From: an uncultured Pseudomonadales bacterium
Lineage (GTDB): Bacteria; Patescibacteriota; Microgenomatia; UBA1400; PJMF01
Assembly: GCA_964648715.1 (NCBI GenBank)
Contig: CAZYNM010000007.1
Span: 1,436 to 65,435, forward strand
Length of the DNA stretch: 64,000 bases
Reading direction: 5' to 3'
Position 1 is the first letter of the stretch, and each line of letters begins with the position of its first letter. The notes under the pieces were generated by a model, which was not told the origin of the DNA, did no database searches, and saw only the letters and a program-made list of their open reading frames with translations. Positions 1-50,659 of this stretch are shown here, piece after piece. Both the position numbers and the translations under genes were made by a program.

Positions 1-1359
1 CTCTGGGGGCATAAAACCACTAAAGCCATTATAGAGTGCTTTGCCATGGTGTAACTGATAGAGCATCCGATTGTCTTCAAGTCCTTCAAACGGTACCATA
101 TCCCACTGTGACAGTGGCAATTCTGCGAGCGTTTTTTCTGGTGCAGCGGCAACAGCTGCATAGATAGGTGGTATTGTGGTAGCAATGGGGATAAGGGGCA
201 CATAGGTGTACCGTAACCATAGCATGGCTGCCAGCCAGATGGTCCCCCCTGCTAGAAGTATGAAACGTGGTACTTGGCGTCTCGAAAGTACCTCTCCCAG
301 TGATAATGTAAGCCCAAAGTTAAGGAGTACACTCCAGCGTGTTACAGCTCGAAATGCTTGGATACCCGGAACAATGTAGTACAGAACAGCATATGGTAAT
401 GGAATGGCAAAACCAAGCGGTTTGAACGTAGTATCGCCAAGTTTAATCACCGGACCCAGCATGCACACTGCACCGGTGCCGGCCATGATTAGCCAAGTAG
501 TTAGGTCAGAATTGTTCTGCTTGCCCTGGACGTGCCACACACGCTCTAGCACTATAGTGAAGATAAGTAAGCCTAGTACGTCTGGCCACAAAAGACGAGT
601 AATGGAAAACGAAAAATGGGCAGTATCACGGATGCTGCGTGCAGCGTGATAGGTGGCAGCTGTCTCTACCCATGGCAGGTAGTACCAAGCACACACTCCC
701 AACGTTACACTCACAATACTGAGAAACATATTGTCGGTGAGGACCGCACGCACTTTCTGTTCTGAAACAACTAATACTAGCGCGGCGGCAGCACACACGT
801 AGCCAGTAAAGGGAGAGTTGAGTGCTTGGGCCACAAAAAAAACTGCCCACAAGAGTGCATAGAATGGGCTTTTTGAATAGAGATACCTCTGGAGAGCCCA
901 GATACTTAGAGGAAGTCCTGCTAGTAAGTACGTGTGTAGATGCACCATAAATTGGAGCTGCAAAAAAGATGTTGCAAACACCAGCGCGATACCAGCAGCC
1001 AGGGAAGATGACTTCCATAGCGAGCGCGCTAACACAAAAAAAGCCAGGAAATTGGTCATACTACCCAAGACAATAAAGGTGTTGTGTTGGGCTATGGGAT
1101 TACTGGTGAACTGCGCAATGATCACTGCTACTGCACCAGCAGTGATAAAAGGATCTGAGTAGGTAACGGTGTATGGATATGGATGAAAAAAAGGCCAATG
1201 GTACCAGCTACCTGTCCCCTGCCAAGCCGTACTGCTTTGCTGTATAAGCCAAATAATGAGTGGGCCATCATTGGGTGAAGTGGTATGTGTGGTCCAGTGT
1301 GTAAAAAGTGTGAAATGAAACAGAATAAGGAGCAGCAGTGCTGCCAGAGCTGCTTTCAT
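1..1359 (-). CDS. Polytopic membrane protein, partial (C-terminus lies beyond window start). Candidate GT-C-type glycosyltransferase-like protein.
   Basis: Manual translation of the minus strand from ATG 1359-1357 (ATGA overlap with the mnmA stop) is open for 453 codons down to position 1. Product is very hydrophobic (MKAALAALLLLILFHF..., many W/F/L/Y-rich helices). Absent from the ORF track because it has no in-window stop. The listed ORFs 626..1018, 404..649 and 932..1162 are out-of-frame overlaps. Confidence 0.6.
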   Translation of the reverse strand, partial: MKAALAALLLLILFHFTLFTHWTTHTTSPNDGPLIIWLIQQSSTAWQGTGSWYHWPFFHPYPYTVTYSDPFITAGAVAVIIAQFTSNPIAQHNTFIVLGSMTNFLAFFVLARSLWKSSSLAAGIALVFATSFLQLQFMVHLHTYLLAGLPLSIWALQRYLYSKSPFYALLWAVFFVAQALNSPFTGYVCAAAALVLVVSEQKVRAVLTDNMFLSIVSVTLGVCAWYYLPWVETAATYHAARSIRDTAHFSFSITRLLWPDVLGLLIFTIVLERVWHVQGKQNNSDLTTWLIMAGTGAVCMLGPVIKLGDTTFKPLGFAIPLPYAVLYYIVPGIQAFRAVTRWSVLLNFGLTLSLGEVLSRRQVPRFILLAGGTIWLAAMLWLRYTYVPLIPIATTIPPIYAAVAAAPEKTLAELPLSQWDMVPFEGLEDNRMLYQLHHGKALYNGFSGFMPPE

Positions 1360-2441
1360 GACATGAGTGCTCCGCCAAGACAGACCGTGCGTCCATCTCG
1401 CTCGGTATAGAACACTGCTGCCTGACCTTCTGCAATACCTTGGATTGGTTCACTAAGTGTCACGGTGCCCTGCCCGTTATCTTGATTTTCTTGCAGTAGT
1501 GTACAGGTTATTCGTTTGCCAAGATGTCTTATGCGCACAGTGAGTTGTTCGCTAGGAAGTGGTGTCTCGATCCAATGGAGTTCACGGATGTTAAAAGTGG
1601 CTGCGTAGGTCTCTGCGCCAAACCCCACAACCAATGTGTTTGTCTCTGGTAGCTTCCGTACGACATAGTAGGGAGGAAAATTATCTTTTTCAAAGCTGCT
1701 GCCATCTTGCAAAGTTACCACAGTTTTCTTGTCTATTGTAAAGCCGTGCCTTTGACCAATGGTGTAGAACCACAACCCACTATGTTGTCCAATTGTACGA
1801 CCTTGCACATCTACAACTGGTCCCGGATTTTCACCTAGTCTCTCCTTGAGAAAGGCGTGCACATTGATATCACCAATAAAACAAATTCCTACAGAATCTT
1901 TTTTGTGCGCCACGGCTAATCCTCGTTCTTCCGCTTGTCGGCGTACTTCTGTTTTTGTATAGCTTGCCAGAGGAAAAACACAGTGTTTAAGTTGTTTTTG
2001 TTGCAAAAGATACAAGAAATATGTCTGATCTTTGTGTGTATCTTTGGGTATGCAGAGTGAAGAATTGTGGATAGCAGCGTAATGTCCAGTTGCTATGGCA
2101 TCATAGCCATGCTCAAGTGCCCAGTCATAAAACAGACCAAACTTGATTTCTTTATTACACAGCACATCGGGATTGGGAGTGCGGCCAGCAGCGTACTCAG
2201 AAAAGAAATACTCCACTACACTGTCTCTATATTTTTGCTTAAAATCTAATACTTGAAACGGAATTCCTAGATCAAGCGCAACCTTGAGTGCATCCGCCCG
2301 GTCTTGTTCGGTTCTACAGCCCGGTGCACGCCAGCACTCTAAGTATACTCCGGTTACCGCGTACCCCGCTTCTGTGAGGAGATGTGCACACAGGGAAGAA
2401 TCTACTCCTCCGCTCATACCAAGTGCAATTTTTTTCTTCAT
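1356..2441 (-). CDS. mnmA: tRNA-specific 2-thiouridylase MnmA
   Basis: N-terminal PP-loop SGGVDSS, and ...GRTPNPDVLCNKEIKF..., typical of MnmA/TrmU. 361 aa. Confidence 0.9.
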   Translation of the reverse strand: MKKKIALGMSGGVDSSLCAHLLTEAGYAVTGVYLECWRAPGCRTEQDRADALKVALDLGIPFQVLDFKQKYRDSVVEYFFSEYAAGRTPNPDVLCNKEIKFGLFYDWALEHGYDAIATGHYAAIHNSSLCIPKDTHKDQTYFLYLLQQKQLKHCVFPLASYTKTEVRRQAEERGLAVAHKKDSVGICFIGDINVHAFLKERLGENPGPVVDVQGRTIGQHSGLWFYTIGQRHGFTIDKKTVVTLQDGSSFEKDNFPPYYVVRKLPETNTLVVGFGAETYAATFNIRELHWIETPLPSEQLTVRIRHLGKRITCTLLQENQDNGQGTVTLSEPIQGIAEGQAAVFYTERDGRTVCLGGALMS

Positions 2442-2478: not shown

Positions 2479-3252
2479 TCAGTAGGTAATTTCTCTAAAG
2501 GGAAGCTCTAAAGTTGTGTACTGCTGTACCTCCGTCCGTGGTAATTGTTCCCCACCAGATACACGATAAATGCCAGGCCCTGTTTGTGAAAGACCATAAA
2601 AGTATACAAAGCCTTCTGGACTAAGCGGCACTGAGTCGTGTTGTTCCGTACCAGCACTAACCTGTGGTTGATAGCCAAAACGAAGTTTATATTCTAAATT
2701 CCCCACGGTATTAATGACGCCAAAAGCATTCCTACTCCGGCCTGCGGAGATCGCTGTACAGGCTTGTTCTTTGGACCATTCTAAAAAGGCATAGTCAAGC
2801 AATGCACCTACCGATGATCTGCCACCTGCAGGCAGCTCGATACGATCATTGGCACGAAATGCAATGCTAGAACGGTGCGTGTGGGGAGCAAAGGTGAATA
2901 CCAGTGTGGCAACGACTTGAGCTTCCTGAGAGATACTAATGAGGTAGACATCTTTTTCTTCTTCACACTTATGCACATACCACTGTGGTGTGGCGAGAAG
3001 CTCGTAACCTTGTTCATTCATCTTTGCAGTGTAGTAAGGTAACCAAGCCTCAAATGCAGCAGCGTCAAGCTTCTTACACTCTTGTGTGAGATGTGCTTGT
3101 GTCATGACATCGCCACGCTTCCTGAGGAATCCGCGCAGCGACTTGCTCTTAACGGCAGAAAGTATGTCTGGAGCATGAATGGGGAAAAACCAACTCACTT
3201 TTTCTGGTCTCTGAACGGCATGCGGGGTGAGGTCAAATAAGTTGTGTTGCAT
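2479..3252 (-). CDS. Hypothetical protein, paralog B of a tandem pair. Possible GNAT-fold FemAB/CelD-like (PF13480-like) aminoacyl/peptidyl transferase.
   Basis: Clearly paralogous to the 3233..4021 product. Both start MQH... and share ...LASPQWY..., GRSxNAFG...LE[FY]K. Start placed at the internal Met (MQHNLFDL) by analogy with the paralog; the ORF upstream of that Met overlaps the neighbouring gene. The C-terminal G-R...FGA block loosely resembles the DfgrG..YK..FGA region of CelD/FemAB-like GNATs. Confidence 0.5.
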   Translation of the reverse strand: MQHNLFDLTPHAVQRPEKVSWFFPIHAPDILSAVKSKSLRGFLRKRGDVMTQAHLTQECKKLDAAAFEAWLPYYTAKMNEQGYELLATPQWYVHKCEEEKDVYLISISQEAQVVATLVFTFAPHTHRSSIAFRANDRIELPAGGRSSVGALLDYAFLEWSKEQACTAISAGRSRNAFGVINTVGNLEYKLRFGYQPQVSAGTEQHDSVPLSPEGFVYFYGLSQTGPGIYRVSGGEQLPRTEVQQYTTLELPFREITY

Positions 3253-4021
3253 AGGGGTGGAGTAACCTTTCGATTCCTGGCGTTCCGTACTGTTTTTCAA
3301 GTTGTTCGGTGGACAGGGTGTCACTTGCCACAAAGAGACGTAATGTAGCTGTAGTGGGGCCGGAAAGTACGTACGCTGCGACACCTGGTTGACCTGCAGT
3401 TGCTGCAGGAATGGTGGTGAGAAGTTCTTCTCCGGGAATATATACTGGTTCATAAAAGTTGGTTTTGAACTCTAAATACCCCAACGTTGTCTGGGCGCCA
3501 AATGCATTATAGGAGCGGCCACCAGAAATAGTGGCTACTTGTTCTTGACAGCATGCACGAATAAAGAAGTAATCGATGAGAGAGCCAAGTGAACTATTTG
3601 ATTGTGAGGAAAGTGACAAAAGCTCACTGGCCTTAAACGCAAGAGTCGCAAGCTCTGTGCCTTTTTGTGAGACAATACCTGTACCCACCAGTAAGTTTTG
3701 TTTGTAGAAAAACAGACCACGGATAATCTTGCCTTCAGCAATTTTTTCATCATACCATTGTGGAGATGCCAATAAGTCATGGTTTCTTGCATTCATTCTT
3801 GTCTTATAAAAAGGCAACCAGTCAAGATAGTTTTGTCGTGTGAGCTGTTCGTACTGCCAGCGAATACCATTGGCAGCAAGGTTTTCTTCTGCCCGTAACA
3901 CAAACTTTCGCAAAGACTTACTACGTATCCCTGCAAAACATTGATCTCTATCACCGTGATAATACCAACGAATCCGCTGTGGTCTAACGAAGCCGAGAGG
4001 TCTGATGTCAATGTGTTGCAT
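3233..4021 (-). CDS. Hypothetical protein, paralog A of a tandem pair. Possible GNAT-fold FemAB/CelD-like transferase.
   Basis: Paralog of 2479..3252 (MQHIDIRPLG..., DLLASPQWY, ISGGRSYNAFGAQTTLGYLEFK). A start at MQH gives a 14-nt overlap with the upstream gene end (4008). Confidence 0.5.
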   Translation of the reverse strand: MQHIDIRPLGFVRPQRIRWYYHGDRDQCFAGIRSKSLRKFVLRAEENLAANGIRWQYEQLTRQNYLDWLPFYKTRMNARNHDLLASPQWYDEKIAEGKIIRGLFFYKQNLLVGTGIVSQKGTELATLAFKASELLSLSSQSNSSLGSLIDYFFIRACCQEQVATISGGRSYNAFGAQTTLGYLEFKTNFYEPVYIPGEELLTTIPAATAGQPGVAAYVLSGPTTATLRLFVASDTLSTEQLEKQYGTPGIERLLHPYATQLI

Positions 4022-5699
4022 CTGCTTCCACTGGATTGAATAAACTACGGTAAGAAACCATGGTAGCGCGTTCAAGTACGGCATGCCAAGGGCTCTGCGG
4101 ATCCGTGACTTTCTCAAACGGAATTTTACCAATCATAAAGTAGTCAAGCAGATCGAGGATAGCATCACGACCAAGTTCTTCTAAATAATCATGGAGTTTT
4201 TCGGTATGCGCAGGATCTTGATCTACCTGTGAGCCCAAAAAAGTCCGAGCTATCGCCTTACCAATTTTAGTGATGTACTGCACGTTGAAATCTCTGGTTG
4301 CTTCAATATGTGGGTGTGTTCTGTCATTATTTTCTAATGGCAGCATGCGCTTGAAGAAGTCAAAAAGTGCCATTTGACCCTCAAAATAAATGGTGTCTTT
4401 GGGGAAGGTTTCTGCAACCAACAGGGTATGTGCTGTGCCAGCTTGGCTGATTGTAACAGGAACTGCTTGGTGATTGAGGGTGGTCCCTCGCTGAATACGC
4501 CACAGAATATCTCCCGCATCTTGTTCGGGAATACCGTACTCTCTCAATTGAGTGTAGATATCTTGTAGCGAGTGTTTGGCTTTCACTGTTCCATCTACAT
4601 CAGCTGCTGTCTTGAGACAGAGTGCAATTGCATAGTAGCGTGCAGCCATCTTTGCTTGTCGCTCATGACCAAACAACTCACCAGCCAAAAGCTCTGCTAG
4701 GACCGCAAGACCTTCGTCGGTTGTCTCGTATCCTTCTGTTCCCTCTTGGAGCAATGTCACTGATTGCCGGGATCCATTCTCGCCACGTATGATATGAACA
4801 AACTCATGCGACACAAATAACTCAATTTCTGTGGGGTCATATGTTTCACTTTCAGGTATACGAATCACTTTTGCTTTGGCATTGACTGTTGTTGCCACTG
4901 AGGCATCAATAATAACGTTCCAACTATCTGCAATACCCAACCTTTTTAAGAAGACGGTATATAAGTGTTTAGTTTCTTGTGGTTGAAGTGGTTCATCAGA
5001 ACTCAGCCGTTCCAATGACAAAGGGGCCAGTTCAGCATCAGTCAAACGAAAATAATTTTGAAATGAATCTGTCTTGTGTATATCTTCTTTTTGAGTTGCT
5101 TGGGACAGCTCAAGTACCGTGCGGGCTGCATCCTCATACTGGAGTGTCACCTCACCACGTTGTTGGGTTTTCTCCAGATCAAGGAGAACAGATAAACGCG
5201 GTGAGCCGGCTGCATTGGTAAATTCTGGAGTTCCTATGACTTGCCCTGTCTCACAAAACTGCAACCAAGCAGTTGCCTTCTCTGCATACGCCTCTTTGAC
5301 TGCTGCGGGGATCTGCGCACCTTCAAGCATGTGTAAAAAGGCGTTGAGCTTGTGGTGATATGCAGCAAGTTGTTGGGGCATATGAAGGGCGATGACCTCT
5401 TGAACACTTGCTGGAGCAGTGGCACTATCTTGGTGAATGGTATATAAAGGGGCTGCGGGTTGAAACTCGGTTATCTTTTGTTGATAGTTTTGTTCGAGCG
5501 TTTTTTTGAACATGGTGCGATAGGCGGCGGGAACCCCCACAGCATCCAAAATCCCAAAATTATTTTTAGGAAGCAATTCCTCCCATTGCTGTACGACTTC
5601 GGCGATACACTCTGCTTCGCCCTGGTCTTTGACAACTTCTTGTTGAAGCGTTGTGCCACCATCAAGAAAAGCTAGTAATTCGGCAGTCTCTTTGTTCAT
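4008..5699 (-). CDS. DUF1704 family protein (flavohemoglobin expression-modulating QEGLA-motif / MATCAP-like predicted zinc metallopeptidase)
   Basis: 563 aa. Contains HExxH (SHEFVHIIRGENG) followed by LLQEGTEGYETTDEGLAVLAELL, resembling the QEGLA signature of TIGR02421/PF08014. ATGA overlap with the upstream ATP-grasp gene. Confidence 0.65.
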   Translation of the reverse strand: MNKETAELLAFLDGGTTLQQEVVKDQGEAECIAEVVQQWEELLPKNNFGILDAVGVPAAYRTMFKKTLEQNYQQKITEFQPAAPLYTIHQDSATAPASVQEVIALHMPQQLAAYHHKLNAFLHMLEGAQIPAAVKEAYAEKATAWLQFCETGQVIGTPEFTNAAGSPRLSVLLDLEKTQQRGEVTLQYEDAARTVLELSQATQKEDIHKTDSFQNYFRLTDAELAPLSLERLSSDEPLQPQETKHLYTVFLKRLGIADSWNVIIDASVATTVNAKAKVIRIPESETYDPTEIELFVSHEFVHIIRGENGSRQSVTLLQEGTEGYETTDEGLAVLAELLAGELFGHERQAKMAARYYAIALCLKTAADVDGTVKAKHSLQDIYTQLREYGIPEQDAGDILWRIQRGTTLNHQAVPVTISQAGTAHTLLVAETFPKDTIYFEGQMALFDFFKRMLPLENNDRTHPHIEATRDFNVQYITKIGKAIARTFLGSQVDQDPAHTEKLHDYLEELGRDAILDLLDYFMIGKIPFEKVTDPQSPWHAVLERATMVSYRSLFNPVEADATH

Positions 5700-6748
5700 A
5701 CAACCTTTGCACTCAATTCTGGGAACATGACAAGGACAAACTCACGGTCAGTGTATCGTTTTTGTCCTTCATATGGAAACTCATGAATACACAATCCAGG
5801 TGAGCTGTTAATCTCAACAATGATGTATGTGTCAGGTGTTTGTGGCTGTGTAATGTCTTGAGACATGAAGTCCACCCCGGCAAAGTGGAGACCTGGAATA
5901 GCACGCACTGCCTGTACTGCAATCTCTTTAACAGAAGGATGCACACGGTCAGTCATATCAATACTGTCTCCCCCTTGCATTACATTGGAGACAGAACGTA
6001 AAAATACTTTTTGACCAGCAACAGGAATGCTTTGAAGTGTTAGGTTTTGGCGAGTAAGGTTGGCCATCATGTCGTCATTTTTTTCAATAATGAAAAGTGC
6101 ATAATCAAGTGTGCGGCCACGACGTGGGTCAGCATTTTTACGATCAACTAATGTCTCAACAGTACTTATGCCGTCCCCCACTACATTGGCTGGTTCTCGA
6201 TGAATGATACCTACTACTTTTTCTCGAGTAGTAAGTACTCGATATTCCTTACCAGAAAATTGTTCTTCAACTAGTGCCCCAGCGTCTTCATCGCTGGTAA
6301 ACGATAGCGCTTTTTTGAGTGCAACCCGATACGCATCTAAGTCTTGAATATTCATACTAATGGCCTGTCCTTGCAAACCATGTGTAGGCTTCACAACCAC
6401 GGGTTTATGTAGTGCTTCAAAGACACGTGTGGTGTAGGCATCAGTATCAGTAGCGTCAACTTTGTATCCGTTCGCTACCTGTATACCGGCGTTTCTGAGC
6501 AATGTATTGGTGGTGTTCTTATCTAGACATGAAGAAAAACCAATGTCTGTCGTATCAGCTGACACTTGGTAGCGGAAATACTTCGTTGTGCCATGATACG
6601 TAAGCTCAAGGATTCGTGTTCCAGGAATGGGTCTCCATTCTACTCCAAGTGCCTCAGCTTGTTCCAAAATGAGTTTAGTGCTGAGAGGAATAGGAATCTC
6701 GCGAAATCCGTCTATTGTGCGGATGGTGTGAACATATGTTGTGCTCAT
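5696..6748 (-). CDS. ATP-grasp ligase, cyanophycin-synthetase (CphA) N-terminal-like, standalone (no Mur-ligase domain)
   Basis: 350 aa. ...VVGDGISTVETLVDRKNADPRRG..., ...MQGGDSIDMTDRVHPS..., ...EINSSPGL... match the CphA ATP-grasp half (GDGxxT...DPRRG, DVTD.HP, EVNAxPGL). ATGA overlaps on both sides. Confidence 0.7.
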   Translation of the reverse strand: MSTTYVHTIRTIDGFREIPIPLSTKLILEQAEALGVEWRPIPGTRILELTYHGTTKYFRYQVSADTTDIGFSSCLDKNTTNTLLRNAGIQVANGYKVDATDTDAYTTRVFEALHKPVVVKPTHGLQGQAISMNIQDLDAYRVALKKALSFTSDEDAGALVEEQFSGKEYRVLTTREKVVGIIHREPANVVGDGISTVETLVDRKNADPRRGRTLDYALFIIEKNDDMMANLTRQNLTLQSIPVAGQKVFLRSVSNVMQGGDSIDMTDRVHPSVKEIAVQAVRAIPGLHFAGVDFMSQDITQPQTPDTYIIVEINSSPGLCIHEFPYEGQKRYTDREFVLVMFPELSAKVV

Positions 6749-7701
6749 AGGTGCTCCTGTACGTACTTGAGTATACTCCCTGCTACATTTCGAGGACTAC
6801 CTTGTAATGGGTAGTGATGCATTCGTAGCCCCGGTGAGGCATTGACTTCAATGACTCCTGCGTTCTTTTGCATTGTAATGGGCGTGGTGAGAGATGTGCA
6901 CATGATATCTATACCAATCACGTTGAGATCACAGACACGTGCAATCTGTTCAAATACTGCTGCATTTTCTGGACAAACAGTATCTGTAACATCCCATGCT
7001 TCACCACCGGTGGATAAATTGGCAGTTTTGCGCAAGTGCACTTCTGTGCCTTGCAGCGGCACCGCATCAAGTGCAGAGCCTTGTTCGTTCAAGTATTCGG
7101 TAACTAGTTCATCCACGGTAATGAGACTTAAATTATTTTGATGACCTTCACCTCTCCAAGGATGTTTATTCTTTTCAGTGATCAGTTGTTGTACGGTGTG
7201 TACTCCATCACCAATCACATGAGCTGGCTTACGAAATGCGGCTGCGACAAACTGGTAACCCACACAAACAATACGATACTCTGTGCCAGACAGCATCTCT
7301 TCAAAAAGAACTATACCTTTTTGTGCACTAAAGTGGCGCTGTGCTTCTTCCATGGTCTTGATACCGACAATTACACCTTTGCCGTGACGTTCATCTACTG
7401 GTTTCATCACTAGTGGAAACGTAAGTGTTTTCAACTGATCTAATTCTGTTTCTGTTTTGACGACACAGCCACGTGCAGTGGGTAGTGAAAAGTGTGTCAA
7501 AATTTTTTTGGTGAGTGGTTTGTAGTCTGCAATTGTTTTTCCCACAGAAGATTGCAGGCTTGTTCGCGAACCTCTGGTATACCACTGCTTCTCATCTTTC
7601 TCCATGAAAATAGTTTCATTGTCATCAAAGAGTGTACATTTTATTCCTTGTTTCAGTGCACTCTCGTGCATGATGCGTGAGCTTGCATTTAATGTGAGCA
7701 T
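6745..7701 (-). CDS. ATP-grasp ligase, cyanophycin-synthetase N-terminal-like, standalone. Tandem paralog of 5696..6748.
   Basis: 318 aa. HVIGDGVHTVQQLITEKNKHPWRG, LRKTANLSTGGEAWDVTDTVCPEN, IEVNASPGLRMHHYPLQGSPRNVAGSIL are near-canonical CphA ATP-grasp motifs. The start may be the internal MHESALKQG (7671). Confidence 0.75.
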   Translation of the reverse strand: MLTLNASSRIMHESALKQGIKCTLFDDNETIFMEKDEKQWYTRGSRTSLQSSVGKTIADYKPLTKKILTHFSLPTARGCVVKTETELDQLKTLTFPLVMKPVDERHGKGVIVGIKTMEEAQRHFSAQKGIVLFEEMLSGTEYRIVCVGYQFVAAAFRKPAHVIGDGVHTVQQLITEKNKHPWRGEGHQNNLSLITVDELVTEYLNEQGSALDAVPLQGTEVHLRKTANLSTGGEAWDVTDTVCPENAAVFEQIARVCDLNVIGIDIMCTSLTTPITMQKNAGVIEVNASPGLRMHHYPLQGSPRNVAGSILKYVQEHL

Positions 7702-8651
7702 ACTTCCTTTACTACATCATCAAAATAATTTTGACTGCCTATTGTAGATATGTGATTGAGATACTGATCAAGTTCAAGAAAAAAGGTAGGAAGTGAAAGT
7801 TGTTCACTGGTAACTGTAGTAGAGAAGTTCCGTAATTCTTCTAGAGAAAGCCGACCCCAATACAGCTGGTGCGGATTACTTTTTTGATGAATGAGCCAGT
7901 CATAGACTTGAATACTTCCTTCCAAGTAGCACATCTCACGGCTAAAGAGTCCTGGCTGACTTGTGTCTGTCAAACCACGCTTTACTTTCACGGCGGTGTT
8001 CCAACTGGTCTGTTTTGATCGACCCAACCGTACTAATGTGTCAAATACTTCCGCAAAGGAAGCTTTTTGAGCTGTATATGCTGCGACATAGGAGAAAAAA
8101 GATTTATAAAATCGCTTATCTTGCCTAAGAAGATGGGTGTGCAAGTTGGCAATGCCCTCTTCTGTTCTACGAATCTCATGTTCTGGGCTTTCATAGGTGG
8201 ACCATGCTTGTGCTGCGTGGTTGCGGTAGCGTAAGACGTGTGTCTCAAGTTCGTGGCGAAGTAGGTCACCAAGCTGCTCTTTTGAGTACACTAACGGCAA
8301 TTGAAAATACAGTGCCGTAGGCGTGACCTTACAACGAGACACGAGATTACTATCAAAGTGAACTTCAAGCGGTGTATGAAGAGGGAACCGCTGATTAAAT
8401 GCGGCAACTTGGCTCACAATATCTTCTTGTGAAACGCGATCTGAGATTGCTGTGCTGCCAGGTGCAGGGAACCGCTGCAACATGTCATAGGCATATTCAT
8501 AGAGTCCTTGATGAGGCACGCCCCATTGGGTTAATAGTTCTGGTGCAGGTATGTCTGCATAGGTGAACTGTGGATTATAGGATACGTCGGCAAAGAATTT
8601 CTCTCTTTCCTCCAAAAGATTCGTCGGTTTAACTGCCATAAGCAAGTTCAT
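7689..8651 (-). CDS. DUF1704/QEGLA-like HExxH protein, second copy (predicted metallopeptidase)
   Basis: 320 aa. HExxH in ...LRHELETHVLRY..., then TEEGIANLHTHLL resembling the QEGLA region. Shorter, divergent relative of 4008..5699. 1-nt overlap with the upstream gene. Confidence 0.5.
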   Translation of the reverse strand: MNLLMAVKPTNLLEEREKFFADVSYNPQFTYADIPAPELLTQWGVPHQGLYEYAYDMLQRFPAPGSTAISDRVSQEDIVSQVAAFNQRFPLHTPLEVHFDSNLVSRCKVTPTALYFQLPLVYSKEQLGDLLRHELETHVLRYRNHAAQAWSTYESPEHEIRRTEEGIANLHTHLLRQDKRFYKSFFSYVAAYTAQKASFAEVFDTLVRLGRSKQTSWNTAVKVKRGLTDTSQPGLFSREMCYLEGSIQVYDWLIHQKSNPHQLYWGRLSLEELRNFSTTVTSEQLSLPTFFLELDQYLNHISTIGSQNYFDDVVKEVCSH

Positions 8652-9940
8652 TATTCGTTCTCCCCCACCAGAAATCCACTCAGATCATTACGTCCTACTT
8701 CAATCTTGTACACAGATTTATCAAGTCGTCTGAGTACCACCATTGCAGTTTTTATTTTACGTTCCTTAAGGCGGAAGCTCACTTCTATCACTGGTGCTTT
8801 GGTTTCATCTTTCTCTGTTTGAAACCATAATAAATCGTCTGTACTTAACAGAGACAAGTCCTCAGCAAGCTGGCGTGAGATCGCACTGCGAAACCGGCCT
8901 GTGTTGAGTAATGCCTCGACCGTGTGTTTTGCCTTGGATTCATTCCCAGCATAGACAGCAATTGACGTGCGTGGTGGCGCAATAAGGAGACCATCTTCAG
9001 CTTTAATTTTATCCGCAAAATTTGCAGCAAATAATGCTTGACCAATTTTCACGCCATGTTCTGCGCTTAACACTTGGAGATCACTCACCCGTTCCAATCG
9101 TCTTCTCAAACCAGCACGATTAGCAAGTTGTATAGAAAGTCCTGGATTGGCATTGAGTTCCACAACAAGAGGTCCACTTGTTTCGCTAATGAATAGGTCA
9201 ACACCACAAAACATCAAACCTGCAGCGCTTGCTGCTTCAACAGCAGTTTGCAACGCTTTGCGCCAAACGGGGATTTTAATGCCATTGAGTTTCTTTTTGC
9301 CATCTGCCATGGTAAGTATAGGTTGACCAGTTCCTGTAATGCCATACGTGGTAATACCGGTCGCAATATCAATCCCTACCCCAATAGCACCCTGGTGCAA
9401 ATTTGCCCTTCCTTCGGACTCGGGGGTGGGTAATCGCAGCATAGCCATAACAGGGACTTGATTAAAAACAATGATACGCACGTCTGGCGTTCCTTTATAG
9501 GCATATTTTTGGAACATGGGATGAATGGGGATGCGTTCTTCAATAATAACATTGTGATTTGATCCGTAGGTACTGTACTGTCCATCAAGAATGTCAAAGC
9601 AATGGAGCTTGACCTCATTGAGTGTCCATACTGTGCCAGTAGAATCATGCCAAGCAAGCTCTTTTTCTACTTTACTGCGGAAGATTGCCACGCCTTTACC
9701 AGCATTGCCATCTGTGGGTTTAATCACAAAGTTACTTTCGAGTGTATCCCAAGGAAATTCATTAACATCTTCAATTGAAGTTAAGATGCCATGAACACGT
9801 GCTGTGCCAATATTGCTATTTTGCAGTAAGATCTTGGTAGCATATTTTGAGCTACAAAAACTTTTCGCTTTGGCTGAGTTGAGCGAACAATACTGCTGCT
9901 GACGAGCATTCATGCCGAGAATATCAGAAGATTTCACCAT
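8651..9940 (-). CDS. RimK-like ATP-grasp (alpha-L-glutamate ligase-related, TIGR02291-like) with ~110-aa C-terminal extension of unknown function
   Basis: 429 aa. ...VIKPTDGNAGKGVAIF..., ...MLRLPTPESEGRANLHQGAIGVGIDI..., ...VELNANPGL... are typical of RimK-related ligases usually found next to DUF1704 and 7TM proteins. The C-terminal ~110 aa has no recognisable motif. Confidence 0.7.
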   Translation of the reverse strand: MVKSSDILGMNARQQQYCSLNSAKAKSFCSSKYATKILLQNSNIGTARVHGILTSIEDVNEFPWDTLESNFVIKPTDGNAGKGVAIFRSKVEKELAWHDSTGTVWTLNEVKLHCFDILDGQYSTYGSNHNVIIEERIPIHPMFQKYAYKGTPDVRIIVFNQVPVMAMLRLPTPESEGRANLHQGAIGVGIDIATGITTYGITGTGQPILTMADGKKKLNGIKIPVWRKALQTAVEAASAAGLMFCGVDLFISETSGPLVVELNANPGLSIQLANRAGLRRRLERVSDLQVLSAEHGVKIGQALFAANFADKIKAEDGLLIAPPRTSIAVYAGNESKAKHTVEALLNTGRFRSAISRQLAEDLSLLSTDDLLWFQTEKDETKAPVIEVSFRLKERKIKTAMVVLRRLDKSVYKIEVGRNDLSGFLVGENE

Positions 9941-9946
9941 AGGTTG

Positions 9947-10870
9947 TTATGACTCGATAATAGTGCGGAAACGCAGATACTCCAATAAGCGGAGCCCTTG
10001 GTACTTACCAGCAAGAATATTGCCCAATGCCACAAAGATAATTGTAAGTTCTGGATTAATGAGAACGGTCTGTTGCAGCCCTTCCCAGCCAATCAATAAA
10101 GAACAAACCACTGCAATAAATAGTGTTTCTAGGGTAAGTTGTACTGCTTGCGATTTGGTACTAGAAAGCTGAGTCTCCATGAAGTTTTCCATGAGTAGAA
10201 TCATGATGAGGAGTGGAAAAATGTTAATTCCAATGATCGCATTGAAACCAGTGACTGTGGCTGCGATGAGCATAATCAAGATGACGAGTGACACACCCGA
10301 AATAAGAAGCGCGGTACGCGGAAGGTACTGCAACTTGAGTCGTTGTGTGAGCGGCCTTAACACGACAGTTGCTAACAAAACAACGGCAAACAGTAGCACC
10401 CCTGTGCTAATGCCTGTTGATACAAAAGCCACAGACAACACAGCAGGTATATAGATACCAAAGCCTTGCAGCCCAATCAAGTGCCTTGAAGCAGAGATGA
10501 TTGCTGTGATAGCAGGAAACAAAATGATAAGAACGACGATATTTGCAGGTAGGCCTTTATCTATGGCTCTACGAATGCCATGCTGAAGAAGATTGTGCCA
10601 GCTAAGTGGCTCAATAGGATGTTCATCAAGGTACGCAGCAAGTTTACTTTTTTGTTTGCCTGTTGTTTCAGTGATATCACGATCGCGTTTTTCTTGGATT
10701 TTTTCTTCAACCAGTGCCGAAGCAGATGCCTGTGCACTGGGAGTAGCTGGCTCAACAAGAACAAGCGGAACCTCCGTTGCCTGTGCTTTAACAGCAGTCT
10801 GTGCGGCAACCTGTGTATGGGTGATGCCAAGAAGGAACACCAAGACGCAGGCAGATGCCAGCAGTTTCAT
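9947..10870 (-). CDS. 7TM membrane protein (7TM module of the ATP-grasp/DUF1704-associated family, without fused transglutaminase domain)
   Basis: Start at MKLLASACVLVFLLG (signal-like). N-terminal low-complexity ectodomain, then about seven hydrophobic helices, ending ...LLEYLRFRTIIES. Sits 6 nt upstream of the RimK-like gene, as in described 7TM/ATP-grasp/QEGLA neighbourhoods. The longer listed ORF start (11047) is probably a spurious upstream extension. Confidence 0.6.
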   Translation of the reverse strand: MKLLASACVLVFLLGITHTQVAAQTAVKAQATEVPLVLVEPATPSAQASASALVEEKIQEKRDRDITETTGKQKSKLAAYLDEHPIEPLSWHNLLQHGIRRAIDKGLPANIVVLIILFPAITAIISASRHLIGLQGFGIYIPAVLSVAFVSTGISTGVLLFAVVLLATVVLRPLTQRLKLQYLPRTALLISGVSLVILIMLIAATVTGFNAIIGINIFPLLIMILLMENFMETQLSSTKSQAVQLTLETLFIAVVCSLLIGWEGLQQTVLINPELTIIFVALGNILAGKYQGLRLLEYLRFRTIIES

Positions 10871-10896: not shown

Positions 10897-11259
10897 TTAA
10901 ATGAAGATTTTGACTAATGGCTGAAAAAAGCCGATCAGTAGAGAGATAATCATGATAGAAAAAAACTGATTGACATGGACTCCAAAAATGAGCATAGCGC
11001 TGATAGAGAATCCGGGAACCAAATAGAGTGCCAAGTACAGTAAGCATGTGTTGAGCACTGTAGAAAAAAGGCCAAGGGTAATGATATTAATAGGTAGAAA
11101 GAAAATTTTGAGTACCGGGCGAATAACGCCATACAGTATTGTTAATACAACACTGGCAATGAGAAGTGTAAGCCAGTTACTAAAGTTAACTGTTGGCAGT
11201 ACCCAAGCCAAGACGAACAACGTAATTGCGGTGCGAATAATAGGTCGTAACATAGCCAA
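10897..11259 (-). CDS. Small 4-TM membrane protein (PF04020 / phage-holin-4-like family)
   Basis: 120 aa, four hydrophobic segments; the pattern resembles the DUF360/Phage_holin_4_2 family. No lysis genes nearby, so a holin role is not implied. Confidence 0.45.
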   Translation of the reverse strand: MAMLRPIIRTAITLFVLAWVLPTVNFSNWLTLLIASVVLTILYGVIRPVLKIFFLPINIITLGLFSTVLNTCLLYLALYLVPGFSISAMLIFGVHVNQFFSIMIISLLIGFFQPLVKIFI

Positions 11260-41992: not shown

Positions 41993-42090
41993 ACCGGTAT
42001 TATACCCCTCACCCTTGAACAAGCACAAAAAAACCGCAGGTTGTGCTGGTGCACTTCCTGCGGTTTGATCTATAAAGGCCTGAGATTTCG

Positions 42091-43245
42091 CTAACGCATG
42101 TGAGTCTTGAACTCACGTGCATTTTGGGCCATGCTTAATGGCCGGGCAAATTCTCGAGGTCCGCCCAAAGAGGTTTGTACATAGATGAGGGTCAGTTCCT
42201 GATATGCATGTGCCGAATGCAGCGCCTGAGATACACCGTCTGTGGTGTTTGCCATGTAGACGTTGTAACCCATGCGCGCTGCAGTCTCTGGAATGTGCGC
42301 AGAGCCAGACAACGATCTCTCCTCCGAACAGGAGCCGTAGGCTCCATTGTCCAGAATGATGTGAGTCATGTTGCTAGGTTGGTGGTGGCCGATGGTGACA
42401 AAGTTGCCAAAGTTAGTAAGGCAACTGGCGTCTCCTTCCACAACTACCACTCGTTTCTCTGGTCGCGAAACCGCAAAACCGAGTCCAATGGCGCTGGTAA
42501 GGCCGAAGCCACCAGCGTTATAGAACTGGTTTGGTGTGTGGTGACGCGCGAACAGTGAGCGGCTGATGAGTCCTGTTGACGAAACAAGTCCCACGTCGGG
42601 TGGCGTAGCACCATGAATTGCTGACAGGATGTCGTCGCGTAGAGCGCTTGCACCTGGCACGGTGTAGTCAAGGATGGTGCCATGGCCATGTGAGGCACTC
42701 ACAGGCGCGCATTTTAGCTGGTGGTGAACCCCTTTCTGTTGGGTCCAGCCACGCTTGACCAGAATGACTCCTGGTTTCTGTGTCTTCTGCATGCTTTGCA
42801 GGCATTCCTCGTACACAGTCCCCGCATTTTGCTCGGTCAAGCATGCATGCCACATGCCATAAGCGTTAAGTAGTGGTTCCGTTGCAGCCCCAGTGGCGAG
42901 GTGTTGAGTCGCATTCTCACCTGGAGCACCTCTGTAGGTGACCAGGAATGGGATCTCCATTTGACAGGGGATCAAGAGTGACCCAATGTCATTGGATGCG
43001 ACCAACATGCCACTGTTTTGCATGTACAGGAGCGGACGTTTGCCCGCTAGCCACATGCCTGCTGCGATACCAACTGCTTCTCGCTCATTGAGTCCAGGGA
43101 TGTGCACGGGCATCTGACCCAGTGCATGGATGAAGTGCCGAAGCACTCCACAGGGAACGCCTGATGATCCACTAACATTTGTGCCCCAACTCTTGATGAA
43201 GTGGCCGATGGGCCCTCCTTCAACGTTGATTGTTAGGTCGTTCAT
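42091..43245 (-). CDS. TPP-dependent decarboxylase, fused ComD/ComE-type (sulfopyruvate / phosphonopyruvate decarboxylase-like)
   Basis: ~385 aa. N-terminal Pyr-domain half and C-terminal PP-domain half with VVVVEGDASCLTNFGNFVTIG (GDG-like TPP/Mg motif ...N). The size and fused architecture match Ppd/ComDE. Start at MNDLTI. Confidence 0.65.
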   Translation of the reverse strand: MNDLTINVEGGPIGHFIKSWGTNVSGSSGVPCGVLRHFIHALGQMPVHIPGLNEREAVGIAAGMWLAGKRPLLYMQNSGMLVASNDIGSLLIPCQMEIPFLVTYRGAPGENATQHLATGAATEPLLNAYGMWHACLTEQNAGTVYEECLQSMQKTQKPGVILVKRGWTQQKGVHHQLKCAPVSASHGHGTILDYTVPGASALRDDILSAIHGATPPDVGLVSSTGLISRSLFARHHTPNQFYNAGGFGLTSAIGLGFAVSRPEKRVVVVEGDASCLTNFGNFVTIGHHQPSNMTHIILDNGAYGSCSEERSLSGSAHIPETAARMGYNVYMANTTDGVSQALHSAHAYQELTLIYVQTSLGGPREFARPLSMAQNAREFKTHMR

Positions 43246-43259
43246 ATGCCACCTCTTTC

Positions 43260-44333
43260 TTAGATTGGATTGTGAATGGACTGCCCTGCGTACTCGCTGT
43301 ACCACGGGCTGCGGTAGTTATCGTAACCCAATGGTCGTAGCGATGAAGCAAAAATGCCCTCTACGATCGTGCGGGCCTGCAAGTAGTAATCCAGCTCTTG
43401 TGCTGCTGGGTCACGCAGTGCTGCGTGATGCGGAAGATACACTTGTAAAAGATTCAGGAGTGGATGCCGGGTCAGTACGGGCAAAAAGCGAGGAAAGTGC
43501 TCTGCAATAGCCTCAAGGCAATCAAGCCCGAGGATGTAGAGCAGGTTTGTTTGCAACCCCCGCTCTTTAGCGTGACTCAGAATTTCCAAGTGCTTGTCCA
43601 GATGAACGCTAGATTTTTTGCGCTTCATCAGGTTGTCTCGCCGCTCGAAGCATTCGACTGTGTTGTAAAGTGCAAAGCGGCCTGCATTTGCCAACCGGTT
43701 GACTGCATCTAGCGTGTTAATCTGTGAGCCGATGTAGCGAATCTCTCCACTAAATCCGAGTCCGCCAAACACACGTTGGATCATCAGTAAGTGGTTGAGG
43801 CAGTCTGCATCGGTGCGGAAGCACCCGGTGACGACGCCGATACTTTCCATGTCTACGTAGCTTGGAACCAGGCCAGTGTCCAGAAAGCCTTGGGCCGCGG
43901 CGCGCATGTTCTGTTCTTCAAGTAAGTTGGAAAAATCCAGTGGTACCAAACTGCTGGTGCCACAGAACTTGCAGCCTCGGCAGGTGCTGCGGCTGTTGCT
44001 GTTGAGCGTCAAGGCTTTGCCACCCTTGCGGATATAGGTTTCTGCGCAGGTGTCGGGATGGACTGGGTCGGCTGGACCGATATACTCGCCAGCCAGCCAA
44101 ACATCTTTCCCATCGTGCAGGAAGGGAGATTCCTGGTCGATGGTCACCGCGAAAAAGTACGACCACCCACTGAGCTGAGGTGTGAGTTTGAACCGCCCTC
44201 GGTTGGTTACCGAGGTGTCAAAGCCAACCGTGCTAGTGCCCATCATATTCAACCCCATCATTAAGATGTCGATGAGGGGAACGTTATACTTATCTGCGAA
44301 CTGCTGTGCTTGTTGGATTGAACGGAAAAACAT
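43260..44333 (-). CDS. Fe-S / radical-SAM-like protein with non-canonical CX2CX2C motif
   Basis: NSRSTCRGCKFCGTS: the position of the usual first Cys of CX3CX2C is Thr, with an adjacent Cys instead. No other recognisable domain. The start is uncertain (MFFRS overlaps the upstream gene by 44 nt; MMGLNMMG is an alternative). Confidence 0.4.
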   Translation of the reverse strand: MFFRSIQQAQQFADKYNVPLIDILMMGLNMMGTSTVGFDTSVTNRGRFKLTPQLSGWSYFFAVTIDQESPFLHDGKDVWLAGEYIGPADPVHPDTCAETYIRKGGKALTLNSNSRSTCRGCKFCGTSSLVPLDFSNLLEEQNMRAAAQGFLDTGLVPSYVDMESIGVVTGCFRTDADCLNHLLMIQRVFGGLGFSGEIRYIGSQINTLDAVNRLANAGRFALYNTVECFERRDNLMKRKKSSVHLDKHLEILSHAKERGLQTNLLYILGLDCLEAIAEHFPRFLPVLTRHPLLNLLQVYLPHHAALRDPAAQELDYYLQARTIVEGIFASSLRPLGYDNYRSPWYSEYAGQSIHNPI

Positions 44334-45293: not shown

Positions 45294-46028
45294 TCACATG
45301 TTATTTTTCTTTTGTGCCAAAACCAACAGAGACGATCCTAGCGGGAGTGAAATAAAGCGAATACTATATGCTTCTAGTTTACACAAAAATAGGAAGATTA
45401 TTTCTAATAAAGGAGATATGGTGGGTATAACTGAGGCATGTCCTGTAGAGTGATGCAGTACTTTTCTTGTGAAAAAAACAAAGGGAAAAAGTGAAAAAAA
45501 TATATATGTTTTACGCAAGACAACAAAACCATGTTTTTCGAGAATTGTAGACATTTCTTCCAGAGTGAATCTTTGACGGGCGTGCATGACCGTGTCGTGG
45601 TGACTCCACAATTGTGGTAGTGCAGAATCTGTAATAATAATGTTTCCCTTTGGTTTAAGCACCCTTGAAAATTGTGCCACTATCTCGTCTATCTTGACTT
45701 TTTTATGATATAGCACATCAAAGCATGTTATGAGTGAAAAACTGTGCGGTGCAAATGGCAGTCTATTAGCATCTGCCTGTATGACTGCAAGGCCTCTTTT
45801 TTTTGCAACGGTACATGCAAACTGATTACGTTCAATTGCTTGTACAGTGCCAAATTTTTGCAAAAAAAGTGTAATGCCTCCTGTACCACAGCCAACATCT
45901 AATATTTTTTGTTTATTTGATGGGTCACGTAATAATTTCAAAAATGTCTCAATATACATTTTCTTTGCTTTGAACCACCAGTAGTTTTGATCAATTATAG
46001 CCAGTTTTTTATATTCATGATCTTCCAT
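45294..46028 (-). CDS. Class I SAM-dependent methyltransferase
   Basis: KILDVGCGTGGITLFLQKFG motif I; ...PKGNIIITD. An upstream ATG at 46061 is an alternative start. Confidence 0.75.
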   Translation of the reverse strand: MEDHEYKKLAIIDQNYWWFKAKKMYIETFLKLLRDPSNKQKILDVGCGTGGITLFLQKFGTVQAIERNQFACTVAKKRGLAVIQADANRLPFAPHSFSLITCFDVLYHKKVKIDEIVAQFSRVLKPKGNIIITDSALPQLWSHHDTVMHARQRFTLEEMSTILEKHGFVVLRKTYIFFSLFPFVFFTRKVLHHSTGHASVIPTISPLLEIIFLFLCKLEAYSIRFISLPLGSSLLVLAQKKNNM

Positions 46029-46066
46029 ATCTGTGCTATCCTCTATTCCATTACTACACATGTATC

Positions 46067-47602: not shown

Positions 47603-47704
47603 AAACATGGCATATACTCTACACTTGCAGCGGATCTTGTATAGATAGCACATGACTGATAAATCTGCTATCTTGAGTATATTGACACTGATGCGTGAAT
47701 TTGT

Positions 47705-48772: not shown

Positions 48773-48778
48773 ATTTGG

Positions 48779-48805
48779 TCAGCCACTTGGCCAGTGGTTG
48801 GAGCC
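48779..48805 (+). repeat. Degenerate tRNA 3'-end (T-arm + acceptor) remnant R1
   Basis: TCAGCCACTTGGCCAGTGGTTGGAGCC is similar to R2/R3 and to the 3' end of tRNA-Lys as read on the plus strand (TGAGCCAGCTGGGACTCGAACCCAGG). Confidence 0.5.
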
Positions 48806-48850
48806 TCTTTTGCTGAGTATCACAATCGTGATGTGATGAGAAATTCGATA

Positions 48851-49189
48851 TTATTCGATAATTGATTGAGGATATAAAGCACATGCTTGATTTTGAAGTG
48901 CCTTAATATTCGCTTTATTTAACTTAGGTTGATATTTGTAAATAATGGGTATAACTAGCTTATTTACTCCTGAGTTCTCTACAGTTTCCATACATCTAAT
49001 AGATTTACTGAAGATTGTTTTGCCTATATTACAACTTATTTCTATTGAGGGCATGGTTCCGTTCCTTAGCTGTTCCCTCATTCCATCTTGCGCATCCAGG
49101 TAGCAATGACTTAGAGAAGCTTCAGTAGTTTTATAGGTAATACCTAACCCAACTAGCAAAATGATAGTTATTACAAAAAGTATTTTCAT
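48851..49189 (-). CDS. Small secreted Cys-containing protein (112 aa)
   Basis: Signal peptide MKILFVITIILLVGLGITY...; 4 Cys; lies between remnants R1 and R2. Confidence 0.45.
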   Translation of the reverse strand: MKILFVITIILLVGLGITYKTTEASLSHCYLDAQDGMREQLRNGTMPSIEISCNIGKTIFSKSIRCMETVENSGVNKLVIPIIYKYQPKLNKANIKALQNQACALYPQSIIE

Positions 49190-49277
49190 ATAAATAATAC
49201 TATATGCTTTTTGATTTGATGTACATGGGTTGGATTAGTATATGCTGCATTTAAATATAAATTAGCTCTAAAATCAG

Positions 49278-49306
49278 TGAGCCACTTGGTCGGTGGGTGG
49301 AACACC
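49278..49306 (+). repeat. Degenerate tRNA 3'-end remnant R2
   Basis: TGAGCCACTTGGTCGGTGGGTGGAACACC: pseudo T-arm (GGTG-GGTGGAA-CACC) plus acceptor-like GAGCCA. Confidence 0.5.
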
Positions 49307-50571: not shown

Positions 50572-50659
50572 TTTTCGATAGTATAATCAAATTATATAGT
50601 AAACTTGTGGTTACGAATTTATAAATCAACAGTAGGTGGTGAAAGAAGTTCACATACAA

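Follow-up and report, generated by a model that had tools for sequence, protein, structure and literature searches.

In a 64,000-nucleotide stretch of DNA (hereafter the window; contig CAZYNM010000007.1 of assembly GCA_964648715.1, GTDB lineage Patescibacteriota, Microgenomatia) from a bacterium of the candidate phyla radiation (CPR), an operon at positions 2479-10870 encodes a seven-transmembrane (7TM) protein together with three ATP-grasp ligases, two peptidases resembling the tubulin carboxypeptidase MATCAP and two Fem-like proteins, here called S1 and S2. With about an even chance of being right, we read this operon as a CPR variant of the rloBC- and QEGLA-type systems that builds, diversifies and trims a short acidic, Glu/Asp-rich peptide at the 7TM membrane protein. 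An earlier note, made from the sequence without database searches, had proposed a system adding and removing a peptide tag or a surface poly-amino acid, a reading that is compatible with all of the findings reported here.

As that note had held, eight open reading frames (ORFs) of the same direction, mostly overlapping, fill the span on the minus strand. In the order of transcription they are:

9947-10870, minus strand: 7TM membrane protein, 307 amino acids (aa)
8651-9940, minus strand: RloC-like ATP-grasp, with a ligase part (aa 1-~300) and a retropepsin-fold part (aa ~318-429)
7689-8651, minus strand: M1, MATCAP-like, 320 aa
6745-7701, minus strand: G1, ligase resembling the G domain of CphA, 318 aa
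5696-6748, minus strand: G2, CphA-G/GshF-like ligase, 350 aa
4008-5699, minus strand: M2, MATCAP-like, 563 aa
3233-4021, minus strand: S1, Fem-like, 262 aa
2479-3252, minus strand: S2, Fem-like, 257 aa

Ligases and peptidases of the operon

Six of the eight products were placed by hidden Markov models (HMMs) in the families predicted for them, namely PF14402, PF14397/TIGR02291-like, PF08014 (twice) and the G domain of CphA (twice); the two HExxH-type proteins thus lie within PF08014, the ATP-grasps lie outside housekeeping families, and the gene order is conserved, as detailed below. Against the cyanophycin synthetase model TIGR02068 (cut-off 850 bits), G1 scored 313.7 and G2 259.4 bits, both covering CphA residues ~159-475, that is the G domain, only. 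G1 aligned with Trichodesmium CphA1 (TeCphA1) at E=1.1e-56, and G2 gave in addition a partial match to GshAB (216 bits). Since the models of D-Ala-D-Ala ligase (Ddl) returned 16-54 bits as opposed to 260-314 for CphA, this enzyme or another housekeeping ATP-grasp was ruled out.

Residues of the CphA1 G domain have been recognized as essential by cryo-electron microscopy and mutagenesis: Lys220 and Lys261 are assigned to ATP, His267 to the P-loop, Glu450 to Mg, Arg309 to the C-terminal carboxylate of the acceptor, Arg323, Asn394 and Ser396 to the side chain or pocket of the aspartate and Arg458 to its alpha-carboxylate, while Glu215 makes contact with the side chain of Arg in the cyanophycin primer (PMC9427784). 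In 12/12 orthologs, G1 keeps K220, K261, H267, R309, R323, N394, S396, E450, G456 and R458 (TeCphA1 numbering), and its G-omega loop reads RKTANLSTGG where CphA1 has RATANLSTGG. As the catalytic and aspartate-recognizing residues of CphA1 are fully kept, G1 is predicted from its sequence to add L-aspartate to the C-terminal carboxylate of a peptide other than cyanophycin. Position E215 is Thr, Ser or Val in G1; this loss, together with the confinement to a G domain with neither M nor N domain, rules out true cyanophycin synthesis.

G2 retains K220, K261, R309, R323, N394 and E450. Position 458 is without Arg in all 10 orthologs and holds C, G, A, S or D instead (Cys in G2 of the window), S396 is replaced by Met in the window and often in the orthologs, H267 and G456 vary and the P-loop differs, which argues for a different incoming substrate, one that probably varies between the subclades of the G2 tree.

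The RloC-like ligase scored 190.4 bits with PF14397 (ATPgrasp_ST; cut-off 31.4), 46 bits with PF08443 and, under the equivalog cut-off of 314.2, 241.6 bits with TIGR02291. Its AlphaFold2 model (pLDDT 80.8) consists of an ATP-grasp, a disordered linker and a beta-rich domain. In a Foldseek comparison of the whole model with the PDB, RimK, CphA1 and ArgX/LysX were the best matches, headed by the RimK structures 5zct, 7qys and 7qyr (E ~4e-10). This architecture of ~427 aa is abundant in the CPR; the best 120 matches listed were 411-433 aa long, and the few named relatives among the matches listed belong to Woesebacteria, Pacebacteria and the 'Patescibacteria group', in keeping with a CPR origin of the window.

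The C-terminal domain was most similar to a phage acid protease (E=2.7e-7, TMt 0.70) when compared by Foldseek with viral structures; an aspartic protease (E=6e-5), an 'ATP-dependent zinc protease' of the RimB family (E=5e-4) and proteases of the DDI1 type, of human and simian T-lymphotropic viruses (HTLV, STLV) and of equine infectious anaemia virus (EIAV) were matched as well. These matches are short (98-158 columns) and concern single-domain proteases in a library poor in ATP-grasp proteins; they were exposed only by this viral library, the PDB search with the whole model being dominated by ATP-grasp matches. PF13975 is matched weakly in 17/23 RloC members. At the site of the D-T/S-G motif of retropepsins the family reads ALxNTGRFRS, with Asn in 32/38, His in 5/38 and Asp in 1/38 sequences. 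The profile of the domain returned only noise from the PDB, hhalign gave a probability of 0.5% against the protease of human immunodeficiency virus 1 (HIV-1), and the domain alone retrieved only 4 fragments from a set of 5.8 billion proteins; as these sequence-only tests were negative, the assignment rests on fold and motif. With its catalytic Asp replaced by Asn the domain is predicted to be unable to cut, so that an active aspartic protease on RloC is ruled out by the NTG motif. Judged from the model, the domain is probably a pseudo-protease of retropepsin fold which probably keeps binding or activating roles. In RimB, a D31E substitution abolishes proteolysis, and RimB binds RimK and stimulates its synthesis of poly-Glu; a RimBK hybrid with an active N-terminal RimB domain is also known (PMC11957791).

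Both MATCAP-like proteins exceed the PF08014 cut-off of 27 bits (M1 74.8 bits; M2 77.4 bits over aa 233-410). M1 can be aligned over its whole length with the crystal construct of human MATCAP (KIAA0895L; residues 3-312 on 3-326, E=1.9e-28, 102.8 bits with phmmer), whereby its HELETH (HExxxH) and TEEGIA motifs fall on HEIGTH and TEEGLA of the human enzyme. M2 has the variant motifs HEFVH (HExxH) and TDEGLA and an additional, unassigned N-terminal region of ~230 aa, and found no sequence match in the PDB. With the QEGLA model TIGR02421 (cut-off 338.65), M1 and M2 scored 70.6 and 64.2 bits; set beside the human match, with scores that are not strictly comparable, this sequence comparison hints at a CPR M1 clade unusually close to eukaryotic MATCAP.

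Gene junctions

The 7TM and RloC-like genes are separated by a 6-nucleotide (nt) gap, RloC and M1 overlap by 1 nt (TAATG at 8651), M1 and G1 by 13 nt, and the G1/G2 (6745/6748) and G2/M2 (5696/5699) junctions both read ATGA; the 1-nt overlap and these two ATGA junctions had been pointed out before and are each seen in the sequence. A further ATGA put at 4008 is not there: the M2/S1 junction reads ATTGA, and the in-frame ATG of S1 at 4021 gives an overlap of 14 nt. S1 and S2 overlap by 20 nt, the ATG of S2 at 3252 being the start also of a 257-aa NCBI protein. Scans for consensus promoters and terminators gave nothing above shuffled sequence and no convincing internal terminator. As the operon leaves no intergenic room for a precursor gene, a cluster for a peptide made on the ribosome and modified after translation (RiPP) or a scaffold peptide encoded in cis was ruled out.

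Three pairs of paralogs are present, S1/S2 (30% identity, E=1e-38), G1/G2 (30% identity, E=2e-36) and M1/M2 (E=8e-5). S1 and S2 share the opening ATGCAACACA (Met-Gln-His; window 4012-4021 and 3243-3252, minus strand), each start lying within the 3' end of the preceding gene, which suggests that their tandem duplication took the start region along, although the proteins have since diverged to the identity given.

A conserved core and a variable cassette

Nineteen distinct related loci were recovered from independent genomes and metagenomes, and the same gene order recurs in them, far beyond chance. The sample is small and mostly anchored on S; six loci reached through RloC are unbiased for S. 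Loci in which both flanks can be seen are arranged as (uvrB)-uvrA-[transglutaminase-core]-uvrC-[PF04020]-7TM-RloC-M1-[cassette]-mnmA. The 7TM-RloC pair occurs in 19/19 loci, followed by M1 in 18/19, and the cassette comprises 0-3 G ligases, 0-2 Fem-like genes and 0-1 extra MATCAP, M2 being found in L001/L002 only among the sampled relatives. In the six RloC-anchored loci, G1 is present in 5/6, G2 in 2/6, S in 1/6 and M2 in 0/6. The cassettes are composed as follows:

L027: none (HAD and TruB instead)
L031: G1
L026: G1 and a true RimK-family ligase
L028: G1 G2
L029: G1 G2 G2
L006: G1 S
L020: G1 S S
L012: G1 S ... S, with fragments of glycosyltransferase family 2 (GT2)
L003, L007, L022, L014: G1 G2 S
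L011: G1 G2 G2 S
L005: G1 G2 S S
L001: G1 G2 M2 S
window: G1 G2 M2 S1 S2
L013: S S GT2
L004: S and an inverted G2
L024: S, lacking M1

7TM-RloC is therefore the conserved core with G1 as its near-constant companion, the remainder forms a variable cassette of ligases and peptidases, and the window holds the largest sampled version of the operon.

Two of the related loci come from metagenome-assembled genomes labelled 'Vitreimonas sp.' (L006, DASPLQ010000012.1, 1.41 Mb) and 'uncultured Pseudomonadales' (L003/L010, CAZNOF010000009.1). In both, the CPR-type synteny block recurs, with proteins 43-75% identical to those of the window, and the taxonomic labels of these records look wrong.

The S family

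S1 and S2 have no Pfam or NCBIfam match, with PF13480, PF04339 and PF02388 giving none at E<=0.1, and neither a single sequence nor the A1 profile retrieved a match by sequence among solved structures. The family is rare, with 23 clusters in the search of 5.8 billion proteins and 327 representatives among 1.84 billion. The AlphaFold2 model of S2 (pLDDT 93.9, pTM 0.90) is nearest to FemX, MprF, Sbb17, FemA and Ate1, and the fold ranking gave a Z of 13.3 versus 11.0 for the tandem-GNAT acetyltransferase MshD. In an alignment of 76 diverse members, Lys189 (in ...GYLEYKLRFGY) and Gly178 are invariant; S1 carries the family motif as GGRSYNAFG...GYLEFK. Distant members do match PF13480 (12/76, best 2.4e-6), PF04339 (7/76, best 8.2e-7) and ATE_C. 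The Fem/CelD-like GNAT assignment made earlier for S1 and S2 hence stands at the level of fold and through transitive homology, not as a direct HMM match. Judged from the model, they are candidate Fem-like transferases for which aminoacyl-tRNA is the putative donor and acyl-CoA an alternative.

In three distant members of 554-795 aa (P0103, P0105, P0122) the S domain is fused C-terminally to an ATP-grasp, while in P0148 and P0152 (~1700 aa) it lies near the N-terminus of proteins with no Pfam domain at all. In the tree, operon-linked S proteins form clades apart from solo S proteins; S1 shares its subclade with L005 and L024, and a separate subclade is found outside the operon in L008, L009, L016 and L023, whose gene contexts have no common theme. 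On the Saccharibacteria contig of L008, the solo S gene (9998-10765) directly follows secY-adk-(amino-acid-kinase-family gene)-map and is thus placed beside the gene for methionine aminopeptidase, a position that would fit a role of the solo subclade as N-terminal protein aminoacyl-transferase.

7TM protein and neighbouring genes

The 7TM protein scored 84.7 bits with PF14402 (7TM_transglut; cut-off 25). Hydropathy predicts a signal peptide, an external low-complexity linker of ~85 aa rich in Ala, Thr and Glu, seven transmembrane (TM) helices and a short cytoplasmic tail, with the N-terminus outside and the C-terminus, ending in ...RFRTIIES, inside. NCBIfam RloB (NF052267; cut-off 900) gave 72.6 bits and aligned at model positions 315-506 only, that is over the 7TM part; the transglutaminase domain usually fused to such proteins is therefore lost, as had been noted, with the linker in its place. 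Neither TM segments nor signal peptides are predicted for the ligases, the peptidases and the S proteins, which are thus taken to be cytoplasmic, and the 7TM protein and a PF04020 protein encoded upstream are the only membrane components of the locus. Upstream of the 7TM gene lie:

10897-11259, minus strand: small membrane protein of PF04020 ('Phage_holin_4_2', 72.5 bits) with about four TM helices
12536-14392, minus strand: extracytoplasmic transglutaminase-core protein of PF01841 (50.6 bits), 618 aa

The PF04020 gene, outside the span first described, precedes the 7TM gene by 26 nt, and the 7TM start at 10870 is supported by this neighbour. It takes the same place in most related loci, and the operon may begin with it. 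The 618-aa protein has an N-terminal signal or TM segment and a C-terminal TM anchor, and the Cys, His and Asp of its core seem to be preserved (AVCQEF...LHAWPEY...QVDPTW); no specific resemblance to the RloB model was seen. Its gene lies between uvrA and uvrC in every related locus with a recovered upstream flank. As the 7TM protein is devoid of the fused inactive transglutaminase, the separately encoded and possibly active one two genes upstream is suggestive.

On the other side, mnmA (window 1356-2441, minus strand) directly follows the cassette in nearly every locus, with the inverted G2 intervening in L004. MnmA is the tRNA 2-thiouridylase that acts on tRNA-Glu, tRNA-Gln and tRNA-Lys. Since mnmA also follows 7TM-RloC-MATCAP in L027, there after HAD and TruB, its position may be plain synteny, or it may be linked to a tRNA-dependent S enzyme. 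Downstream of mnmA, a PKD-domain surface protein is encoded in L003, L012, L026, L029, L030 and L031, and in five of the six (all but L031) a sortase comes next; the window side below 1356 holds short unassigned ORFs only. Elsewhere in the window, where the GC background is ~45%, GC content reaches 53% at 42001-44000 and then falls to 36-38% at 46001-52000, and eight tRNA genes lie on both strands at 55710-61255.

Proposed function

ATP-grasps of the RimK and CphA types attach an amino acid to a C-terminal carboxylate that they have activated, Fem-type enzymes acylate an amine, and MATCAP removes the C-terminal residue from an acidic tail. In the proposed system, the RloC-like ATP-grasp would, as in the RimK family, activate a C-terminal carboxylate as acyl-phosphate and add L-Glu, while its fused retropepsin-fold domain would most likely hold the acidic chain or stimulate the ligase in the way that RimB does with RimK. 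G1, to go by its complete set of CphA1 residues, would extend the growing C-terminus with L-Asp, and G2, with its altered pocket, might add another residue or an amine. S1 and S2 would pass further amino acids, probably from aminoacyl-tRNA, to an amino group of the product or acceptor. M1 and M2 as zinc carboxypeptidases would take off C-terminal residues for length control, editing or turnover, and the 7TM protein would receive, anchor or export the product to the envelope.

That such a product needs trimming is indicated by genetics of the related system of Pseudomonas aeruginosa, where cells without the Glu-cleaving RloA proteases die in hypo-osmotic medium and deletion of rloB or rloC suppresses this effect, so that ligase and 7TM protein seem to make what the protease has to cut (PMC11957051). 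The pair of 7TM protein and ATP-grasp can consequently no longer be called experimentally uncharacterised, as the triad that contains it had been in the earlier note. The CPR version sharpens the chemical hypotheses, an acidic Glu/Asp chain being what one would predict from the combination of a full aspartate pocket, cytoplasmic trimming by MATCAP-like enzymes and an inactivated retropepsin.

Several points weigh against this reading. Since TIGR02291, TIGR02421 and RloB all score below their NCBIfam cut-offs, it would be premature to call these proteins orthologs of the proteobacterial ones, and we know of no product, acceptor or activity for any member, rloBC included. CPR genomes are compact and syntenic and the entire stretch from uvrB to mnmA runs in one direction, so that gene adjacency carries less weight than it normally would. 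For the tRNA dependence of S, the argument comes from the fold ranking, where the Z margin over tandem-GNAT acetyltransferases is small, and from the invariant Lys189; the conserved N/R-S-S-L-G-A loop of the S proteins could instead bind coenzyme A, and one S subclade lives elsewhere, away from the operon, as in L008, L009, L016 and L023. That the system takes part in export is no more than a guess prompted by its membrane partner.

Alternative explanations

Instead of making a free peptide, the ligases and MATCAP-like peptidases might write and erase C-terminal residues of one protein in a reversible 'tail code', perhaps on the tail of the 7TM protein itself. RimK/RimB acting on ribosomal protein S6 and TTL/MATCAP acting on alpha-tubulin provide models for such a cycle; the full-length alignment of M1 with human MATCAP, the RimK structures, including the RimK-RpsF complex, among the best matches of RloC and the lack of room for a precursor-peptide gene would all fit, and so would a cytoplasmic 7TM C-terminus whose final residues are E, EE, EQ, ES or EEE in roughly two of three orthologs sampled. 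Roughly one tail in three, however, closes with basic or neutral residues (IISK, KLAK, ILKR, NKKYD, EKNHG) in loci that still have ligases, which leaves the 7TM tail only partly consistent as acceptor; up to five ligases of three kinds seem too many for a single regulatory tag, and the target protein remains hypothetical. We consider this explanation rather unlikely. A bolder form is distinctly improbable in our view: it envisages a prokaryotic C-terminal 'tail code' with RimK-like writers of Glu, CphA-G-like writers of Asp or another residue and tRNA-dependent Fem-like writers, with MATCAP erasers and a pseudo-retropepsin reader, acting on the cytoplasmic 7TM tail or on a lipid- or protein-anchored acceptor, whereby strain-specific cassettes write different tails.

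ATP-grasp ligases that add D-Asp to the stem peptide are known from enterococci and lactococci, and the cassette could likewise tailor peptidoglycan or another envelope precursor, with ATP-grasp and Fem-like enzymes adding side-chain or cross-bridge residues to lipid II or a similar molecule and the number of ligases setting a strain-specific bridge. The closeness of S to FemX and FemA, which act on peptidoglycan bridges, and to MprF, which acts on lipid, points in this direction, as do the rlo mutant phenotypes in cell shape, beta-lactam sensitivity and hypo-osmotic lysis, the cassette variability, typical of surface structures, and a GT2 glycosyltransferase in two cassettes. G1, on the other hand, keeps the CphA1 geometry for adding Asp to a backbone alpha-carboxylate and not for acylation of a Lys epsilon-amine; no mur, fts or lipid II genes are nearby, cytoplasmic MATCAP-type carboxypeptidases have no known part in peptidoglycan synthesis and the PF14402/TIGR02291 pair occurs also in Gram-negative bacteria without bridges, all of which makes this role clearly unlikely. 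A storage or osmoprotectant polymer of cyanophycin-like or poly-acidic nature, made by RloC and the G ligases as poly-Glu or poly-Asp reserve and depolymerised by the MATCAP-like enzymes, would accord with the nearness of G1 to the CphA1 G domain and with the free poly-alpha-Glu that RimK makes upon stimulation by RimB; poly-alpha-Glu and osmolyte roles are also discussed by the authors of the Rlo study (PMC11957051). Yet G1 has neither the Mur-ligase-like M domain nor the N domain and has lost E215, and a reserve polymer leaves the 7TM protein, the Fem-like transferases and the variation of the cassette from strain to strain unexplained, so that we regard it as very unlikely. Finally, synteny may be partly coincidental, with 7TM-RloC-M1, perhaps with G1, forming one system and S1/S2, M2 and perhaps G2 parked in a permissive spot upstream of mnmA. 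HAD, TruB, GT2 fragments and small ORFs do occupy the interval from M1/G1 to mnmA in some relatives, the S subclade outside the operon would be expected, and S and M2 are scarce in the RloC-anchored sample. This is highly improbable in view of recurrent cassette genes that all stem from families forming or cleaving amide bonds, a non-random set, of operon-linked S clades distinct from the solo ones, of start and stop codons that overlap as far as S2 and of independent fusions of S with ATP-grasps.

Implications

Bacteria with genomes of ~1 Mb keep 7TM-RloC in all sampled relatives and the MATCAP-like gene in nearly all, and have diversified the cassette, which implies that the function is important, probably tied to the envelope and under pressure to diversify. 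As a very close bacterial relative of the tubulin carboxypeptidase encoded beside ATP-grasp ligases, M1 matters for the question of where the eukaryotic machinery of tyrosination and glutamylation came from. If the broad C-terminal code outlined above were true, it would be a bacterial counterpart, and possibly the evolutionary source, of the eukaryotic TTL/MATCAP cycle of tubulin and would also show what rloBC makes in Pseudomonas. The S family, tied to ATP-grasp ligases by neighbourhood and by fusion, would lengthen the list of tRNA-dependent non-ribosomal amide-forming enzymes. A literature search found nothing on the CPR form, on G-domain-only ligases in such a context or on the S family; the novelty lies in a CPR variant of systems already known that contains one new protein family.

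Comparison with known systems

The proteobacterial neighbourhood of 7TM-transglutaminase, TIGR02291 and TIGR02421 QEGLA genes, reportedly described computationally by Iyer et al. in 2009, has the same three Pfam families in the same sort of operon. The window differs in that all three proteins stay under the equivalog cut-offs and accessory ligases are added. The experimentally studied relative is rloABC of P. aeruginosa (Lormand et al., 2025, PMC11957051), in which a PF14402 7TM protein (RloB) likewise goes together with a RimK-related ATP-grasp of the cytoplasm (RloC) and with a peptidase that takes off acidic residues; there, rloBC has effects on osmotic survival, on the shape of the cells, on the formation of biofilms and on sensitivity to beta-lactams (PMC11957051). 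While RloA is a secreted and active retropepsin, the retropepsin-fold domain of the window is cytoplasmic, Asn-substituted and fused to the ligase, the role of the peptidase being held by MATCAP-like metalloenzymes; in addition, the 7TM protein of the window is free of the fused inactive transglutaminase and up to five extra genes are present (CphA-G-like ligases, Fem-like genes and a second MATCAP).

An ATP-grasp Glu ligase physically coupled to a retropepsin-like module is also found in RimK/RimB and RimBK, which poly-glutamylate S6 and in which RimB, besides stimulating RimK, trims the Glu tails (PMC11957791). The protease domain of RimBK is N-terminal and active (DTG), however, whereas that of the window is C-terminal with NTG, and the Rim system has no membrane partner, MATCAP or further ligases. 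With the tubulin tyrosination cycle the window shares the pairing of an ATP-grasp ligase with a MATCAP-fold HExxxH metallo-carboxypeptidase; unlike TTL, the ligases of the window belong to the RimK and CphA clades, a tubulin-like target is absent and the eukaryotic TTL/MATCAP pairing is functional, not genomic.

On the level of single proteins, G1 shares with CphA1 the catalytic and aspartate-recognition residues and the G-omega loop, but is a stand-alone protein of ~320 aa which lacks the N domain, the Arg-adding M domain and the contact to the primer Arg. FemXAB, MprF, Ate1 and Sbb17 provide the top structural matches of S2, and S has an invariant Lys in ...YK..FG... near the C-terminal end of the GNAT core; different from these enzymes, S proteins have ~255 aa, about 1.5 GNAT units instead of two full ones and no Pfam model. 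Taken at the level of sequence families, the window locus would function like the rloBC, QEGLA and RimK/RimB systems while being the equivalog of none of them.

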